Source: Squalus acanthias (Eukaryota). Taken from it: 64,000 bases of DNA. Below, piece by piece: positions 8,070 through 57,649 of the stretch (its first letter is position 1; each line of letters begins with the position of its first letter). The translations under genes and the position numbers were made by a program. The notes under the pieces are model-generated. The model worked only from the letters and a program-made list of their open reading frames with translations. It searched no databases and was not told the origin of the DNA. Location of the stretch: assembly GCA_030390025.1 (NCBI GenBank), contig CM059434.1:43958001-44022000 (forward strand), given 5' to 3'.

Positions 8070-8312
8070 CGCTCTGTGCTGGGTGGCAGCCATGTTTTCC
8101 CAATCACTGTCTGGTTGGAGGCTGCTGACAACAGGTGGTAGCTCCTCAGAGTGAGGTTTGTTGATTACTAGTGTGTGCAGGGGCAGGTGTGAGGCTGCGT
8201 GCTGGTCATTGAGCTCCTCCCTTTCCCTCTCCCGCACCAATCGTTCCTGGACCATTGCTTCCTCTCCATCAGCAGAAGAAGCATACGGAGAGGCGGCTTG
8301 CTTGGAAGACAT
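8070..8312 (-). CDS. SOX6: SOX6 (SoxD transcription factor) canonical first coding exon, 81 codons
   Basis: Translation [81 protein letters not shown] closely resembles the vertebrate SOX6 N-terminus ([22 protein letters not shown]...[22 protein letters not shown]...DADWD). Minus-strand acceptor ttcttcttctttacgttcaacag|CAGA ATG (exon start 8316). Phase-0 donor GCG|GTAAGT at 8069. Confidence 0.95.
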
Positions 8313-18524: not shown

Positions 18525-19165
18525 AACAATAACTTGCATATATATAGCGCCTTTAACATAGTAAAACATCCCAAGGCACTTCACAGGAGCGTTATAAAAC
18601 AGAATTTGACACCGAGCCACATAAGGAGATATTAGGGCAGATGACCAAAAGCTTGGTCAAAGAGGTAGATTTTAAGGAGCGTCTTAAAGGAGCAAAGAGA
18701 GGTAGAGAGGTGGAGAGGTTTAGGGAGGAATTCCACAGTTTAGGGCCTTGGCAGGTGAAGGCATAGCCACCAATGGTGGAGCGGTTAAAATCGGGGATGC
18801 TGAAGAGGCCAGAATTAAAGGAGCACAGATAACTCAGAGGGTTGTGGGGCTGGAGGAGATTAAAGAGATAAGATGGGGCGAGTCCATGGAGGGATTTGAA
18901 ACCAAGGATGAGAATTTTAAAATCGAGGCGTTGCTCAACCGGGAGCCAATGTAAGTCAGCGAGCACAGGGGTGAAGGGTGAACGGGACTTGGTGCATGTT
19001 AGGACACGAGCAGCGAGTTTTGGATGACCTCAAGTTTACGGAGGGTAGAACATGGGAGGCCGGCCAGGAGTGCCTTGGAATAGTCAAGTCTAGAGGTAAC
19101 AAAAGCATGGATGAGGGTTTCAGCAGCAGATAAGCTGAGGCAGGGGTGGAGTCGGGCAATGTTCC
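18525..19165 (-). mobile_element. L2 LINE, 5'-truncated 3' portion
   Basis: Minus-strand peptides AETLIHAFVTSRLDYS.ALLAGLP and LADLHWLPVEQRLDFKILIL match the L2 ORF2 C-terminus. Tail ggcgctatatatatgcaagttattgtt. Confidence 0.9.
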
Positions 19166-22129: not shown

Positions 22130-22772
22130 CTCGAGGGCAGCATTGTCACATCTGAGTCAATCCCCAACAGACACCAAAGCACATAATCAGTGCACCAATG
22201 AGGGGATGCTGCGTTGTCAAAGGTTCTGTCTTTTGGGTAAGTGATTAAACTGAGATCTTGTCTGCCTGCTGAGGTAGACATAAAAGATCCTGTGGCACTA
22301 TACAAAGAAGAGCAGAGGAGTTCACCAGTGCAAAAGCAAAATACTGCAGATGCTGGAAATCTGAAAAAAAAAACCTCAGAAAATGTTGGAAATACTCAGC
22401 AGGTCAGGCAGCATCTGTGGAGAGAGAAACAGAGCTAATGTTTCAGGTCGGTGTCCTTTCATCAGAACTCGGGCAAAAGGTCACTGACCTGAAACATTAA
22501 CCCTGTTTCTCTCTCCACAAATGCTGCCTGACCTGCTGAGTTCTCCAGTGCACTGACAAACATTCAGCCCTCAACCAACACCAGCAAAAACAGATTAGCT
22601 GGTCATTCACTCATTTGCTATTTATGAGACCTTGCTACGTGTAGATTGGCTGTTGCATTTGCCTACATAACAACAGTGAGTGCACTTCAAAAGTGATCCA
22701 TTGGTTGTAAGGCACTTTGGGATGTTCGGAGGACATCATAAGGAGCTATATCAATGCAATTTCTTTCTTCTT
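22130..22772 (+). mobile_element. DeuSINE (SacSINE1-like) interrupted by a foldback insertion
   Basis: Deu-domain-like gacataaaagatcctgtggcacta...gaagagcagaggagttc...ccctcaaccaacacc...cagattagctggtcatt...ttggctgttgcattt. L2-type tail gctatatcaatgcaatttctttc. Confidence 0.8.
22333..22537. mobile_element. Penelope-like foldback insertion with minimal hammerhead motif
   Basis: Arms ctcagcaggtcaggcagcatctgtggagagagaaacag / ctgtttctctctccacaaatgctgcctgacctgctgag. TSD gagttcWccagtgca (22318-22332, 22538-22552). Minus strand 22470-22432 reads GAGTT-CTGATGA-AAGGACACCGACCT-GAAA-CATT-AGCTC. Confidence 0.75.
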
Positions 22773-31603: not shown

Positions 31604-33431
31604 ACTTCACCTGAACCGTGCTGGGACCAGTGTTCTGGCGAGTCGTATAACTAGGGCGGTAGAGAGGGCTTTAAACTAAATAGTGGGGACAAGGGGTCAA
31701 ATTTGGGAAGATGTGGTAAATCAAAGAGTAGAGACAAGGCAAGAGAGAAAGGTATTAATATGGGAAATGATAAACAGACCGTGACAGGAAGGGATAGAGA
31801 GTACAAATCTAAGAGTAAATCAACAGATAAGGCTAGAGGTTACAAAAATAATAAAAGGACAAAACTAAAGGCTCTGCATCTGAATGCACGTAGCATTCGA
31901 AACAAAACAGATGAACTGATAGCACAAATAGAAATAAATAAGTACGATCTGATAGCCATTACAGAAACATGGCTGCAGGATGACATAGATTAGGACCTGA
32001 ATATTGAAGGGTACATGACATTTAGGAAGGACAGGAAGCTAGGAAAAGGTGGAGGGGTGGCTCTGTTAATTAATGATGATATTAGCACAATAGAGAGGGA
32101 TGACCTAAGTTCAGGAAACTAGGATGTAGAAGCGGGTTGGGTAGAGATGAGAAATGATAAAGGCAAGAAGTCACTTGTGGGAGTGGTGTACAGGCCCCCT
32201 AACAGTAACCACATGGTAGGATGGAGTATAAAGGAAGAAATAATGGGAACTTGTCAGAAAGGTACGGCAATAATCATGGGGGATTTCAATCTACATATAG
32301 ACTGGAAAAATCAGATGGGCAAAGGTAGCCTAGATGAGGAGTTCATAGAATGTTTTCAGGATAGTTTCTTAGAACTGCACGGTCTGGAGCCAACCAGAGA
32401 GCAGGCTATAGTAGACCTGGTATTGTGCAACGAGGTAGGATTAATTAATGACCTCATAGTGAAGGCGCCCCTAGGTAGCAGCGATCATAATATGATTGAA
32501 TTTTACATTCAGTTTGAGGAGAGAAGAGTGGGTCCAAGACTAGTATTTTGAACTTAAATAAGGGCAATTATGAGGGCATGAAAGCAGAGCTAGCTAAAGT
32601 GAACTGGCAAATTAGGTTAAGGGATAGGTCAATAGAGTTGCAGTGGCAGACATTTAAGGAGATATTTCAGAATACACAGAATATATACATTCCAACGAGA
32701 AAGAAAAATTCCAAGGGGAGGACCCACCATCCGTGGTTAACTAAAAAAGTTAAAGATAGTATCAAACTTAAAGAAAAAGCATATAATTGCGCAAAGATGG
32801 GTGGCAGGTCAGAAGATTGGACAGAATATAAAAAACAGCAAAGAATGACTAAAAGATTAATAAGGAGAGAAAAGTTAGAGTACGAGAGAAAGCTAGCTAG
32901 AAATATAAAAACAGATAGTAAGAGTTTCTATCGATATTTAAAAAAGAAAAGAGTTAACAAAGTGAGCATTGGTCCTATAGAAAGTGAGTCTGGGGAGTTA
33001 ATAATGGAAAATAAGGAGATGGCAGTTGAATTGAACAGGTATTTTGCATCGGTCTTCACTATAGAGGATACAAGTAACATCCCAGAAATAGCTGTAAATC
33101 AGGAAATGGAAGGGAGGGAGGAACTCAAGAAAATTACAATCACCAGGGAAGTGGTACGGAGCAAATTGTTGGAGCTGCGGGCTGACAGGTCCCCGGGTCC
33201 TGATGGACTTCATCCTAGGGTCTTAAAAGTAGTGGCTAGTGAGATAGTTGATGCGTTGGTTTTAATTTTCCAAAATTCCCTAGATTCGGGGAAGGTTCCA
33301 TTAGATTGGAAAATAGCAAATGCAACTCCTTTATTCAAAAAGGGAGGGAGACAGAAAGCAGGAAACTACAGGCCAGTTAGCTTAACATCTATCATAGGGA
33401 AGATGATAGAAGCTATTATTAAAGACATTAT

Positions 33432-33651
33432 GATGCGGAGATGCCGGTGTTGGACTGGGGTGGACAAAAGTGAGAAGTCGCACAACACCAGGTTATAGTC
33501 CAACAGCTTTATTTGAAATCACAAGCTTTCGGAGCGCTGCTCCTTCGTCAGGTGAATTCTTCACTTCACCTGACGAAGGAGCAGCGCTCCAAAAACCTGT
33601 GATTTCAAATAAAGCTGTTGGACTATAACCTGGTGTTGTGCGACTTCTCAC
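33432..33651. mobile_element. 220-bp Penelope-like foldback insertion inside the CR1 RT
   Basis: Perfect 12-bp TSD TAAAGACATTAT (33420-33431, 33652-33663). 87-bp inverted arms 33470-33556 / 33565-33651 with 3 mismatches. Confidence 0.85.
33519..33555 (-). ncRNA. Minimal (type I, PLE-style) hammerhead ribozyme motif
   Basis: Minus strand reads TCAC-CTGACGA-A-GGAGC-AGC-GCTCC-GAAA-GCTT-GTGA. Stem I TCAC/GTGA, core CUGANGA and GAAA, 5-bp stem II, palindromic AAGCTT in place of stem III, putative CUU cleavage triplet. Confidence 0.65.
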
Positions 33652-34893
33652 TAAAGACATTATAGCAGGGCACTTAGAAAAGTTCAAGGTAATCAGGCAG
33701 AGTCAACATGGTTTTGTGAAAGGGAAATCATGTTTAACCAATTTATTGGAGTTCTTTGAGGAAGTAACATGTGCTGTGGATAAAGGGGAACCGGTGGATG
33801 TACTGTACTTAGATTTCCAGAAGGCATTTGATAAGGTGTCATATCAAAGGTTATTGCAAAAAATAAAAGCTCATGGTGTAGGGGGTAACATATTGGCATG
33901 GATAGAAGATTGGCTAGCTAACAGGAAACAGAGAGTAGGCATAAATGGGTCATTTTCTGGTTAGCAAGATGTAACGAGTGGTGTGCCACAGGGATCAGTG
34001 CCGGGGCCTCAACTTTTTACAATTTATATAAATGACTTGGATGAAGGGACCGAAGGTATGGTTGCTAAATTTTCAGATGACACAAAGATAGGTAGGAAAG
34101 TAAATTGTGAAAAGGACATAAGGAGGCTACAAAGGGATATATATAGGTTAAGTGAGTGGGCAAAGATCTGGCAAATGGAGTATAATGTGGGAAAATGTGA
34201 AATTGTCCATTTTGGCAGGAAGAATAAAAAAGAAGCATATTATCTAAATGGCGAGAGATTGCAGAGCTCTGAGATGCAGAGGGATCTGGGTGTCCTAGTG
34301 CATGAATTGCAAAAAGTTAGTATGCAGGTACAGCAAGTAATTAGGAAAGCTAATAGAATTTTATCGTTTATTGCGAGGAGAATTGAATATAAAAGTAGGG
34401 AGATTATGCTTTAGTTATACAGGGCATTGGTGAGACCACATCTGGAGTACTATGTACAGTTTTGGTCTCCTTATTTAAGGATGTAAATGCGTTGGAAGCA
34501 GTTCAGAGAAGGTTTACTAGACTAATACCTGGAATGGGCGGGTTGTCTTATGAGGAAAGATTGGACAGGCTAGGCTTGTATCCACTGGAGTTTAGAAGAA
34601 TAAGAGGTGACTTGATTGAAACATATAAGATCCTGAGGGGTCTGAACAGGGTGGATGTGGAGAGGATGTTTCCTCTTGTGGGAGAATCTAGAACTAGGGG
34701 TCACTGTTTAAAAATAAGGGGTCGCCCATTTAAGACAGAGATGAGGAGAAATTTTTTCTCAGAGAGTCGTGAGTCTTTGGAACTCTCTTCCTCAGAGGGC
34801 GGTGGAAGCAGAGTCTTTGAATATTTTTAAGGCAGAGGTAGATAGATTCTTGATAAGTAAGGGGGTGAAAGGTTATCAGGGGTAGGCGGGAAT

Positions 34894-35225
34894 GTGGCAG
34901 CCAATTTGCAGACAGCAAGCTCCCACAAACAGCAATGTGATAATGACCAGAAAATCTGTTTTTTAGTTATGTCGGTTGAGGGATAAATATTAGCCAGGCC
35001 ACCAGGGAGAACTCCCCTGCATTTCTCCTAAATAGTGCCATGGGATCTTTTACGTTCACCTAAGAGGGCTTCAGTTTAACATCTCATCTGAAAGATGCCA
35101 CCTCCGATAGTGTAGCGCTCCCTGAAGTGTCAGCCTAGACTTTGTGCTCAAGTCTCTGGAGTGGGACCTGAGTGCACAACCTCCTGGCTCAGAGGCGAGA
35201 GTGTTCCCACTGAGTCAAGGCCAAC
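34894..35225 (-). mobile_element. DeuSINE (SacSINE1-like), head and body
   Basis: gtggcagccaatttgc...cagcaatgtgataatgaccag...aatagtgccatgggatctttta...ctcaagtctctggagtggga...cccactgagtcaagg. Confidence 0.85.
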
Positions 35226-37169
35226 ACTTAATTCTGCATGTCTTATAATATCATTAAATATCTTAGTAGCTCCAAAATGTCGAGCTCTGCTTTTTATCAA
35301 ACTTAGAGGATGGTGTTGGTACACTGCTGCAGACAACATGTAATTAGTGTGTCTAATAAAGAGACACATTTTGGATATGTAAATTACAATTCAAAATGAG
35401 ATATTCCTGCAGAAATTAGAAACTGTAGGTCTTAACTTTACAACAGCTGAGAACATATAACTGTGGCTTTAGAATATCATATTGATGAACTATGCTAGTT
35501 CGTCCCAATTTATTTATACAAATTTAATGGTGAACTATACTTTCCCCATAACTGGAGACTTGCAAGTCATATCTTTATGAAGATCTAGATACAGTAACCA
35601 CTGCAGTAGGTTTAGTCAGTGGTATAGTGTAGCTTAATCTAAAAAAGTCCTTCAGCCCTTTACAAACCACAGTTTATTAAATGCTACTTTTTTCTGCACA
35701 TTACTATTTCACACTGCCAGAATCTTGCTTAAATTCTTATATTAATAAACGCATATCATTTTTTCATAAAATATTGTATGTGAGCAATATTATTTTATTT
35801 TAATAGTATATGAAGGAAGCTTCATTTTCAGGGGTGGGGGGTTGTTAAAGCTTCTCGGACTATTTTACTTAAATAAGTTAAACCCAAGTGAAAATCTTGG
35901 AGGAGGAAGAGAATGAATGTTGACCCTTCCTAATTAAAATCAATGTTATAGTGTTACAAACATGCATTTAATTTTTTTCAACTTTACATTTTTTTTTTGC
36001 TGACTAATTTTCGCAGTAATTCCTGGCTTTATACTCACAGCATTAATTTTGATATTCCAAATCAGTTTCCATTTTTATTGGTGCACTGAACAAGAGAGGA
36101 AAGAAAAGACCAGACCAAGCGTTGTCTTCACAGCTGAAGGAGACGATCAGAATCAAATCCCATCAGATGAACAAAGCTCACCAGGTTTGGAGAAATGATG
36201 TGGCTTGGCAAACTAATTGGTTAAAAATTAATTAAGCATCATTTTACAATCTAGGGATTTATCAGTTAAAAACTGAAACTGAAGAACCTTAACCTTGCTC
36301 CAAGCTGACTTAATGATGTCACTCTGGGATGATTAATTATTTTTAAATAGTTCCTGCCTTTCACACTGGGTTTGACGAGCATGATGTTAAATATTCCATC
36401 ACACCTGCCTTGTATCTCAAAGTGGCTGCCATCAATAACCACAGCAGCCTCCTTGATCATTGTTAAGTACTTTAAGAAGTTTAGCATTTAGAGGGTGCCA
36501 ACCATTGCGAAAATAACTTCCACCCTCCCTGGGCAGTAGCATGGCAGGAAGAGTTACAAGCAGTGGAAACTACAAGTACTACACTGGCATTACTCTGCCC
36601 CATTACAGAACTTATCCTCCCTCCTTTTGCTTAGAATCAAATTGTCAAAGACTTTTGCAAACGTATTTTAAAGAGTATGTACTTTACATGAGTAATAGTA
36701 TAGTTACTACACTTTTCCTTCATTCCAACAATGCTGTCGAATTCTATACTTCACTCTGGCTGCAGCGGGATTGCATTTGGCTTTGTGTGTTCTTTCCTCA
36801 TTAATTGCTTTTGACACATTCAAACTAACTTAAAAAAGTAGGTAGGAACCTATAGAATCATTTTGTCTGACTTTACGACATTTCATTTGTGCCTGTGCTA
36901 TTAACTATTTCCCAGCTCAACTGAGCTGGAAAGATTCCAAAATGTTGGTTAAAAAAAAAGATTTTCTGTTATACAGATTTTACATATACTTCTGTATAAT
37001 TTGTTGAAGCCACAATGGCCTATTCGGGCCACGCTCCGAACCTGACGAATGGACAATTTGACTTGTTGATCATTCCCATCAGATCCTCAGGACTGCTCAT
37101 CGCTGATCCCAAAAAGAAAAACAATTCCTTCCTTGTCTCCTGGAGATGGTAGCTCCTGCTGCAGCATGT

Positions 37170-38047
37170 ACCACAAACTACTTGTCTGACATCCAGAGCT
37201 GGATGAGCAGAAATTTCCTCCAACTAAATATTGGGAAGACCAAAGCCATTGTCTTCAGTCCCCGCCACAAACTCCGTTCCCAAGACACCGACTCCATCCC
37301 TCTCCCTGGCAACTGTCTGAGGCTGAACCAGACTGTTCGCAACCTTGGTGCCGTATTTGACCCAGAGGTAAGCTTCTGACCATATATCCGCACCATCACC
37401 ATCACTCCCTACTTCCACCTCCGTAACATTGCTCAACTCCACCCCTGCCTCAGCTCATCTGCTGCTGAAACTCTCATCCATGCCTTTGTTACTGCTAAAC
37501 TTGATTATTCCAACACACTCCTGTTTGGCCTCCCATTTTCCGCCCTTCATAAAATTAAACTCATCCAAAACTCAGCTGCCTGTATCCTAACTCGCACAAA
37601 GTCCTGTTCACCCATCACCCCTGTGCTCTCTGACCTATATTGGCTCTCAGTTGAGCAACACCTCGATCTTAAAATTCTCATCCTTGAGTTCAAATCCCTC
37701 CATGCCCTCAGCCCTCCCTATGTAACCTCCTCCAGCGTTACAACCCTCTAAGATATCTGCGCACCTCCAATTCTGGCCTCTTGAGCTTCCCCGATTTCAA
37801 TCGCTCTACAATTGATGGCCATGCCTTCAGCTGCCAAGAATCTATGCTCTGGAATTCCGTCCCTAAATCTCTCTGCCTCTCTCTCTATTCTCCTTTAAGA
37901 CCCTACTTAAAACTTACCTCTTATCTGCCCTAATATCTCCTTATGTGGCCCAGTGTCAAATTTTGTTTGATAACACTCCTGTGAAGTGCCTTGATACATT
38001 TTACTACGTTAAAGGTGCTATATAAATGCAAGTTGTTGTTGTTTGTT
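37170..38047 (+). mobile_element. L2 LINE, 5'-truncated 3' portion
   Basis: LSDIQSWMSRNFLQLNIGKTK and AETLIHAFVT peptides. Tail aaaggtgctatataaatgcaagt(tgt)n. Confidence 0.9.
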
Positions 38048-42134: not shown

Positions 42135-42160
42135 CTACTGAGTAACTAAGGTTCACTCAC

Positions 42161-42237
42161 ATAGAGTCGTCGTTCTTCCACTTTCCTTTTCTACTTTGAC
42201 CTATCGCAGCATCCAGAACTTCAGAACTTGACGGCAT
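42161..42237 (-). CDS. SOX6: Candidate alternative upstream coding exon of SOX6 (MPSSSEVLDAAIGQSRKGKWKNDDS-I-R-MSSKQ)
   Basis: ATG at 42237, with an in-frame TGA three codons upstream. 25 codons + 2 nt, then donor AT|GTGAGT at 42160. Phase 2, in frame with the 8316 exon. Sits in a locally CpG-richer, repeat-free, promoter-like block. Confidence 0.6.
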
Positions 42238-52651: not shown

Positions 52652-52866
52652 AATAAAAACAGAAAATGCTGGAAATACTCAGCAGCTCAGGCAGCATCTG
52701 TGGAAAGAGAAACAGGGTTAACGTTTCAGGTCGATGCACTCTGTTCTGATGAAAAGCCATCGACCTGAAACGTTAACTCTGTTTCTCTCTCCACAGATGC
52801 TGCCTGACCTGCTGAGCATTTTCTGTTTTTATTTCAGATTTCCAGCATCTGCAGTACTATGCTTTT
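52652..52866. mobile_element. Penelope-like foldback insertion with minimal hammerhead motif
   Basis: Arms aaataaaaacagaaaatgct...gttaacgtttcaggtcgatg / catcgacctgaaacgttaac...agcattttctgtttttattt. TSD gtaYtggtRtacaaga (52636-52651, 52867-52882). Plus strand 52743-52777 reads GTT-CTGATGA-AAAGCCATCGACCT-GAAA-CGTT-AAC. Confidence 0.75.
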
Positions 52867-55178: not shown

Positions 55179-57649
55179 ATTAAAGGCAAAAGACAGATAG
55201 GCATTTACCCGTGTGCTATATGCAGTGCATGCCGATGTTTCTCCCTACCTTCCAGGCACCCCTGCGGGTTATATTCAGGTATGAGTCACCGACTTTCTTT
55301 TCAATCCGTCTATCCTCCCGCAGAGTCCCATGGCCGTCGGTGCCTCATCACCGTAACTTTGCGGGAGGCGTGGCAAGTTCCATTTACAGCAGTGGCGAGG
55401 TAACCAGCCACAAGCAAATTCTAGCAGGTAAATGGCTGAAGCTGAAGAGCGCCAGAAGGGACAGCCAGGATGGCGCTGGGTGAGAATTGAGAGTACAGGC
55501 CATGGAGGCACACAGATGCAAACTGCGCATACAAAGTACTTTCCTCCTGAGTCGCTAGGAGATCAGGCATTAATTCCAGGAGACTCCCGGCCAATCCGAG
55601 AAGGTTTGGCAACTCTACTCCTATCCTGCCTCCTCAATCTAGTTTTGGACTAAGCAAAGGGTAGCACAACTCCTGCTCTCTGTCACTGAGCAGAGATCCA
55701 AACTGGAATCACAAGGAGTGGAGAAGGTTATGGCTTATTTGCCTTTTTAGCTAGAGAATAAGTTGATGTGAGTGTCTATAGTGGAGTGGTGGGGGAGGGG
55801 GGATAAATAAAATGTCAAGAAAGAGCAAGTTTAAAAAAAAACCTTTAACCTCTTTGAACAGTGAATTGAAAGTCTCTTTGGGTGAGTCCACCTGGTAAAG
55901 CTGAGATATTTGTTTTCTGACAAGCCAGTACCTTTCATTTAGCTGAAAATCACAGAAGACAAAGTATTGTTGTAAGAGGCAGTGACCTTTGGTGTCCTTG
56001 GAGTCTGCTGTGACCTTTCATCTCTGTTATCCCCAGTGGTCTCCTCTAACAGCTCTAAAACTCCATCCTGCTAGGCTGAATTCCAATTCCTCATAAAGCC
56101 CTTTCCTCTCAAAACAAAACCAATTTCTGCACCAAGGTGGGCGAGAAACACAAGTGCATTGTTCTGTGCAGATGGGAAGTGGGAGTTACCACAGCAACTG
56201 GCCTAATCCCCTCTTTTTACCACCTTTTAGCCAGCCAATCAAGTACGCTACCTTTTAAATTATGTGCTTGAATACCGGTGGCCTATCTGGATGCTTTAAT
56301 TGCTGTGATTTTTTTTTGTGTAACACATACAACATGATGGGCTAATCGAAATTTGCAAAATAATGACGTACCTCCACAAAATATTCCTCCTCCCGAGGCC
56401 CAGTCTAAGGAGAGAAAAAAAACAATAATGAGACCATTATTAAGAGAGGGCATTAAAATGCTGGTCTACCATTAAACACAGAACTTAATTGTTCTGGCCT
56501 TGTCCACACAATCAACAACCTATTGTTTAACAGTTGAAAAAATAAACGATTGGAGAATGGGTGCCATAATGATCAGTCTGTGCTGCCATACACGCACCAT
56601 CCAGAACTGTCAACAGGGGCTATTACAGAATCTCTCGACAGACAGTCACTTTTTGTCAGAAAAGGTAATTTAAACAGCAATGTCTGGGAGCTGCTAAAAC
56701 AAGCCTTTGTTTGTTGTTTTATAATTGTTCAGAAACAGCTAATAGAGAAGAAGAGCGAAGAAAAACAGGGGGAAAGGGAGACAGAGAAAGAGAGAGAGGG
56801 GGCAAGACATTTTTGCATCGTGGTGTTATCAATGGGATATGCTGCATATTCCCACCGTTGATGACAATCTTTAATATAGAGAACTGGAGCCACAGAGAAC
56901 TGACAGCATCTGAGACCCAGATTTCTGTGGCTTTTGTAATCTGTCGTTGGAGCTCCTGATACAACTAAATACATGGGCTAGATTCCCTCTCTTTTAGCTA
57001 TGGGAATTGAAATTTCCATTAGGCCTTGATTGAAGAGAGCAGGAAATAAGTTAAATGGGAGAGAGCAGTGTACAGATGTCACTGATCTCTGTTTGAGGAC
57101 CATGCCCCAGTCCCACTAATTACCATATAAAATGCCACGGAAGAGGCAGAAGTAAAGGGGTACAGTGAGGGAGCGAGGGATAAAGAGGCAGAAAGTATTA
57201 AGTGGACCTCCCTTGTTGTCATGAGTCCACAACGTGCTTCATTTATCTTCATCTAGTTAAGCTAAATTAATTAAGAATCTGACTGTTACACACTTTCCCT
57301 TTTTATTACATCAAATAATGTCAGATATCTTGCGGGGGGGGGGGGGGGGCGGAATGAGAGAAGTAGAAAACCTCTTGCTGCCGAGATTTATTCAGCATCT
57401 ACCTGAAAAACAGATATCCTGTCTTAAGTATTTTTACACCATATCTGAAGATATGACAGCTATGACAAGGTTTGAATTTTTCCTTATTAATAAAAAGTGT
57501 ATCCTCAAATTAATTGCCATTCTCCTCTATATTTAGTTATAATTATTAAGTGGTGGAAATGAGGATTTTGCATTTTGAAAATCACTCAAATGCTTACAAG
57601 GAGCACAATGCTCAGTTTTAAAAAGACCCCCCCCCCACTCCCCTTACCC

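Follow-up and report, generated by a model that had tools for sequence, protein, structure and literature searches.

The 220-bp insert at positions 33432-33651 of the window, i.e., the whole 64,000-nt stretch of Squalus acanthias DNA analysed here, consists of two head-to-head pseudo-LTR (pLTR) ends of an abundant Penelope-like element (PLE). It was likely formed in one event by two separate cDNA syntheses, and within the SOX6 transcript its hammerhead ribozyme is predicted not to be active; the probability of this reading is put at roughly 70%. The insert is real and young; it is an ordinary piece of PLE debris within a SOX6 intron and is most likely inert. The locus itself is of little importance, being one among well over ten thousand copies and predicted to be inert. 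The features of the insert and its surroundings are as follows.

33420..33431, plus strand: left target-site duplication, 12 bp, in CR1 RT sequence
33432..33469, minus strand: 38-bp PLE tail, on one arm only; in tandem copies, the tail abuts the ORF ATG directly
33470..33556, minus strand: tailed pLTR arm, covering -5 to +81 relative to hammerhead C3 and matching the parent pLTR exactly
33519..33555, minus strand: core-intact minimal type I hammerhead, predicted cut 33523/33522
33557..33651, plus strand: tail-less pLTR arm, -13 to +81
33566..33602, plus strand: second hammerhead, mutated at G12, G15.2, and U16.1 (33591, 33595, 33597), predicted dead
33652..33663, plus strand: right target-site duplication
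31700..35200 (limits approximate), plus strand: host CR1-type LINE, APE endonuclease and RT pieces with stops
8070..8312, minus strand: SOX6 exon that begins MSSKQ and lies downstream of the insert, 99% to Heptranchias perlo SOX6
42160..42237, minus strand: upstream SOX6 coding exon (MPSSSEV...) with splice signals, which puts the insert inside an intron and matches annotated shark isoforms
about 56374..56403, minus strand: further-upstream SOX6 exon (LGLGRRNILW) with AG acceptor and GT donor, found in annotated shark isoforms

The insert is bounded by identical 12-mers, TAAAGACATTAT (12/12 identical at 33420-33431 and 33652-33663; about 3e-7 by chance per given pair of places). The inverted repeat 33469-33556/33565-33652 spans 88 nt including one base of the target-site duplication (TSD), which leaves 87 nt within the insert. 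Size, perfect TSD, and 87-bp arms with three mismatches are exactly as an earlier note on this DNA had described them. Positions 33557-33564 hold upstream pLTR sequence that is absent from the tailed arm and includes an initiator-like TCACTT with its A at 33563. The mismatches (33524/33597, 33526/33595, 33530/33591) fall on U16.1, G15.2, and G12 of the plus-strand hammerhead, confirming that all of them lie in the core of the other copy. Three mismatches are about what the background arm divergence of the PLE family gives (per site, 1.6% outside CpG and 6.2% at CpG). On the SOX6 strand, each of the three forms a G.U pair, which leaves the hairpin unbroken there.

The host LINE carries endonuclease (PF14529) and RT (PF00078) domains on the plus strand, and its RT frame is open across the site once the insert and one TSD are removed. 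SOX6 exons on the minus strand flank the insert on both sides; the insert is therefore intronic and the intact motif lies on the pre-mRNA strand, where the earlier note had placed it. The window also contains two older, decayed head-to-head foldbacks (22370-22550 and 52660-52860) of a different hammerhead-bearing repeat with a CTGATGA...GAAAC core; in the one near 22.4 kb, the core lies on the SOX6 sense strand. 3' fragments of another LINE-type RT ORF are located at about 18590-19030 (minus strand) and 37100-37750 (plus strand).

Across the 3.7-Gb genome, the intact core of 33 nt is matched exactly 7235 + 6984 = 14,219 times; the reversed control has no match. About 0.25 exact cores per 64 kb, or 1.9 per 500 kb, are thus expected by chance. 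The core in SOX6 needs no special cause, because of these genome-wide copies and because two older foldbacks of another hammerhead-bearing family share the window. Its occurrence is at chance level, and the link to SOX6 carries no weight.

A longer copy of the family led to a Penelope-type parent with RT and a GIY-YIG motif, which bears out the Penelope origin claimed earlier. In the parent (loci L053 and L061), the ORF carries RT motifs, the linker CX4CxxC, and the motif VVYLIRC..C..WYIGET; a 3' UTR of about 360 nt comes next, and then the pLTR, which matches the intact arm and tail at 100% identity over 125 nt. The partial parent ORF (P0001) matches PF00078 with an E value of 7.4e-6 and 26.2 bits, which is under the cut-off of 29.6, and it shows 63% to an 881-aa RT protein. 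A direct Pfam match to the GIY-YIG nuclease was not obtained for the parent ORF at E ≤ 1, and a PDB search with it gave nothing under E 0.1. The VVYLIRC..C..WYIGET motif and the R, H, E, and N of the parent do align with P0007, itself a PF01541 protein at 4.4e-7, and full-length relatives of the parent carry PF01541 and align through the motif. Two cysteines lie between the GIY-YIG motifs, as expected for an EN+ PLE. The linker CHGDLCKTC fits the CX2-5CxxC linker (RT to EN) of Neptune/Nematis, which defines these clades according to the available text of PMC8557442. By its linker, the parent is classed as a Neptune/Nematis-type PLE.

The hammerhead-bearing pLTR is located after an ORF and before the next ORF start in L061, L092, and L093; an ORF start follows in two (L092 and L093) of the 20 loci whose tail runs on into ATG. 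Upstream of the hammerhead, long copies contain a TATA-like box that precedes TCACTT by about 30 nt, and Adineta pLTRs likewise have a TATA box and a TCACT initiator, as given in the accessible part of PMC3846280. The spacer of L015, considered as upstream context, turned out to be inverted 3' UTR and was discarded. Just past the ORF stop, the 3' UTR of L061 holds a relic with 84% identity over 45 nt to the older foldback family, beside a degenerate hammerhead-like stretch, hinting that the element may have gained a new pLTR behind an old one.

The complete minus-strand hammerhead claimed earlier reads UCAC CUGACGA A GGAGC AGC GCUCC GAAA GCUU GUGA, with C3 at 33551. It comprises a 4-bp stem I, an extra A between A9 and G10.1, a 5-bp stem II with a 3-nt loop, a palindromic AGCU stem III, and a CUU triplet, with the predicted cut between 33523 and 33522. 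The search with hammerhead models that the earlier note had proposed gave no support: the Rfam scan of the sequence returned no hammerhead family at E ≤ 10, and its nine hits were all hairpin-driven (miRNA-type, below gathering scores) or noise. A closed stem III is what the Rfam hammerhead models look for. Cleavage is slower at NUU triplets. PMC11875169 offers no information on the efficiency of CUU. The core positions C3-A9, G12-A14, U16.1, and H17, the extra base 9/10.1, the G10.1-C11.1 pair, and the palindromic stem III are all present, and comparison with the minimal type I hammerheads in the available text of PMC4209133 supports the minimal, dimer-type anatomy. Near the intact hammerhead there is no dimer partner on the same strand; the second motif lies on the opposite strand and lacks G12.

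As a genomic proxy for cleavage, arms starting at the predicted cut (+29) were counted: 341 were found, compared with 114 at +28 and 277 at +30. Within the first 100 rows at +29, about 39 are explained by stem I microhomology and eight are full-length variants; among the first 100 rows each, full-length variants account for about 15 at +28 and more than half at +30. The excess at +29 is weak at most.

The anatomy of the family was assessed on loci that were required to contain one exact core each. A set of 76 loci, fetched in order from the first 100 core matches (one pair skipped, the last seven matches left out, L076 and L077 being duplicates), contains 60 head-to-head pairs vs 21 unpaired arms, some of which may have a partner beyond the fetched stretch. 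Exactly one arm is tailed in 59 of the 60 pairs. Among 220 loci, 127 of 135 unique pairs are one-tailed, seven are tail-free, and one is two-tailed. The foldback is the commonest insertion form of this PLE family. From 250 loci, 126 one-tailed pairs with a TSD of at least 9 bp were obtained; the TSD, 71% AT, measures 12-13 bp in 96 of them. Tail-less arm ends peak at +82/83 (51/126), and tailed ends peak at +118 to +122.

CR1 as a preferred target was not upheld (27/126 sites vs 43/298 control points, p 0.09), and the site of the SOX6 insert occurs once. In 57 loci with a 12-bp TSD, the base just before the TSD is C in 64% and the base just after it is G in 70%, repeated targets being uncorrected; such a symmetric C-N12-G preference is what a dimeric nuclease would give. 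The same target 12-mers were reused by independent insertions in two groups, L014, L112, L125, and L138, whose targets are apparently CR1 3' ends, and L069, L072, and L078. Among 135 foldbacks, insertions of a single base (A, C, or T) occur at one point of hammerhead loop II, +15, with the arms of one insert disagreeing in 28 of 111 pairs; these insertions may reflect subfamily variation or RT slippage.

The arm junctions contain a preferred stop. With the same end filter, 4080 matches leave the majority template after -7 and 556 after -8. The next base in the first 100 of the -7 matches is C in 60, T in 9, and A in 31; 26 of these 100 simply continue along a subfamily variant, and for 20 of the 60 with C, a one-base T microhomology to the partner arm would explain the base equally. 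In the -8 control, too, the next base is most often C (42 of the first 100). The extra C at -7 is present in 3121 arms across the genome. When the partner starts at -6, the two arms are separated by a C in 31 loci (AGT-C-CTT, untemplated by either arm) and by an A in six (AGT-A-CTT). Where both arms stop at -7 with two bases between them (47 loci), these are CG in 5, CA/TG in 7, CC/GG in 15, CT/AG in 2, templated in 16, and other in 2. In 96 loci not picked by junction, -7 is the largest stop class, with 20 arms, 13 of which have a sense-strand G. Neither arm of the SOX6 insert stops at -7 or has an extra base. The initiator-like A at -7 is predicted, from motifs alone, to be the transcription start site. 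An untemplated, cap-derived G is known for L1 and SVA from the portion of PMC4859970 available, and the additional C at -7 suggests that the template was a sense RNA copied up to its capped 5' end.

A functional role at this locus would require cleavage of SOX6 pre-mRNA by the intact hammerhead, either as a trans dimer or aided by a protein, with an effect on SOX6 expression, and selection for loss of the other core. The core is indeed intact, intronic, and on the SOX6 sense strand, the clustering of the three mismatches within 7 nt in the other core has a chance of only about 0.012, and the Anolis hammerhead cleaves on addition of the PLE protein (PMC11167929). The predicted folding argues against it. 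The isolated arm folds near the hammerhead form (predicted -10.8 vs -11.6 kcal/mol), whereas the full hairpin in SOX6 RNA, with G.U at every mismatch, reaches a predicted -171 kcal/mol and leaves stem II a probability of about 1e-19, in agreement with the earlier suggestion that the long hairpin may mask the ribozyme. In SOX6 pre-mRNA, the complementary arm would be transcribed first and would zip an 88-bp duplex over the ribozyme; the intron would then be spliced out, the insert being neutral. Lone minimal PLE hammerheads did not cleave and dimers did so weakly in the work available from PMC4209133, and the chance density of exact cores also speaks against a role. Four DNA runs from other species cover CR1 only, with zero depth at 33439-33627, and are uninformative on the insert itself (the best sequencing runs contain 0.69 of the words); the search brought up no informative RNA run and no run from the same species. 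Such a role is regarded as extremely unlikely; the ribozyme is predicted to be fully sequestered in SOX6 pre-mRNA and the insert most likely inert. That the foldback is a non-autonomous (retrozyme- or MITE-like) element, itself transcribed and copied as a unit, is hardly more credible. It would be in line with the narrow size class near 200-225 bp, with junctions that recur in some copies, and with the derivation of animal retrozymes from PLE pLTRs given in the available part of bioRxiv 10.64898/2026.07.22.740005. However, arm 5' ends range from below -38 to +70, which argues that the hairpin is not copied as a unit; the 3' ends vary with the target, and copies with like junctions (L001, L011, and L017) carry differing subfamily alleles. 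The two hammerheads lie on opposite strands rather than in the tandem, same-strand units of a retrozyme, and the fixed ends and shared interior of a MITE are replaced by variable junctions and ends and a one-sided tail. The earlier description as a young non-autonomous PLE derivative therefore stands for the PLE origin and the youth, but not for a non-autonomous family copied as a unit, as junctions and ends differ from copy to copy. Each foldback was most likely assembled at insertion, judging from these sequences.

A more serious, though still unlikely, alternative is a self-priming foldback, already proposed for Adineta Penelope in the accessible part of PMC3846280, in which a single cDNA on an antisense template folds at a palindrome and copies itself head-to-head. 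Short palindromic junctions are common, and the arms agree at the polymorphism +44 in 107 of 123 pairs; 16 are discordant, which exceeds the 1.6% background but falls far short of the 62 expected for random pairing. The two arms mostly have one source and sometimes two. Concordance would equally be seen if one cDNA were copied, if one RNA served twice, or if gene conversion came later. Thirteen of the 123 pairs are clean A/G discordances, in conflict with self-priming given a background of 1.6% (p 1.6e-7). Self-priming further requires the tailed arm to be longer at its 5' end. After omission of five long pairs, one duplicate, and the tail-free pair, this holds for 16 of 53 resolved pairs, whereas the tail-less arm extends at least 3 nt further 5' in 26 and the ends are within 2 nt in 11. 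In those 26 pairs and in the SOX6 insert (-13 vs -5), each arm holds unique sequence, so that copying of one arm from the other is excluded. The extra C at -7, with its indication of a capped sense-RNA 5' end, also counts against an antisense template. Taken as genomic sequence, the family data favour a pair of independent cDNAs, both made on capped sense RNA, and speak less for the antisense self-priming that has been published.

For the two-cDNA reading, the steps from priming to joining are deduced from genomic junctions. The observed layout runs from a TATA-like box about 30 nt before the initiator-like A (-7 from C3) through the hammerhead and the tail to the ORF ATG. The GIY-YIG nuclease would cut the two strands 12-13 nt apart, and each 3' end would prime reverse transcription in the 5' leader of the RNA: the first at +118 to +122, where the tail ends, and the second some 38 nt further upstream, at +82/83. 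An mRNA initiated in the pLTR would leave only 90-130 nt 5' of the priming sites, so that both cDNAs would be short. The cDNAs would often reach the cap, gain an extra C, and become joined end to end. The SOX6 copy is a blunt join of arms ending at -5 and -13, so that the RNA of at least the -13 arm would have begun upstream of -7. We lean towards the view that the stubs genome-wide are a record of such double priming by PLEs, with a staggered 12-13 nt cut, two fixed leader sites, a capped mRNA, and cDNAs that run to the cap and are joined. If true, double priming would account in one model for pLTR inversion, for a tail on one side only, and for why tandem copies are needed, and would replace antisense self-priming. 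The formation of inverted pLTRs and tails by PLEs is called unresolved in the available texts of PMC8557442 and PMC3846280. The architecture and the hammerhead motif are already in print; a two-cDNA model or a cap signature for PLEs was not found in the literature searched, which covers few subscription journals. Thousands of young junctions, with their strict tail asymmetry, initiator stop with an extra base, and 12-13 bp TSD, yield direct predictions for the in vitro Poseidon assay.

In L1 twin priming, each of the two cDNAs represents a different stretch of the RNA. On the two-cDNA reading, the shark family resembles this system, as presented in the part of PMC4859970 available, in that the second-strand end primes a second cDNA, which results in an inversion, and in the extra G at full-length 5' ends; it differs in that the shark cDNAs overlap almost fully, resulting in a palindrome. 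EN+ PLE insertions are described in the accessible text of PMC8557442 as an inverted, 5'-truncated pLTR, a one-sided 30-40 bp tail, and a TSD, all of which are found in the insert. Within what is available of PMC8557442 and, for Adineta Pen2a, PMC3846280, the likeness comprises head-to-head pLTRs, a one-sided 38-bp tail, a TSD, a pLTR with TATA and TCACT initiator, and an ORF start at the tail. The shark family differs by its commonest product, a stub of 130-230 bp without any ORF, and by a TSD of 12-13 bp compared with the known 8-10.

The minimal metazoan PLE type I hammerheads in the available text of PMC4209133 share the short helix I, the extra nucleotide 9/10.1, G10.1-C11.1, and the palindromic 15.2-16.2, and Schistosoma pairs likewise lie 100-700 bp apart on opposite strands. 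The 5-bp helix II of the shark motif differs, and that text gives no shark example. The Poseidon element of Anolis carolinensis (PMC11167929) belongs to the Poseidon clade and its ORF begins inside the hammerhead, whereas the shark ATG follows the tail and the linker is of Neptune/Nematis type; the inverted repeats are left unexplained in that paper. Both systems have an AT-rich target (71% AT in the shark TSD). In vitro, the Anolis element cuts and extends both strands, and two RT start sites flank the tail (PMC11167929); the junctions of the shark family fit one RT start site per strand.
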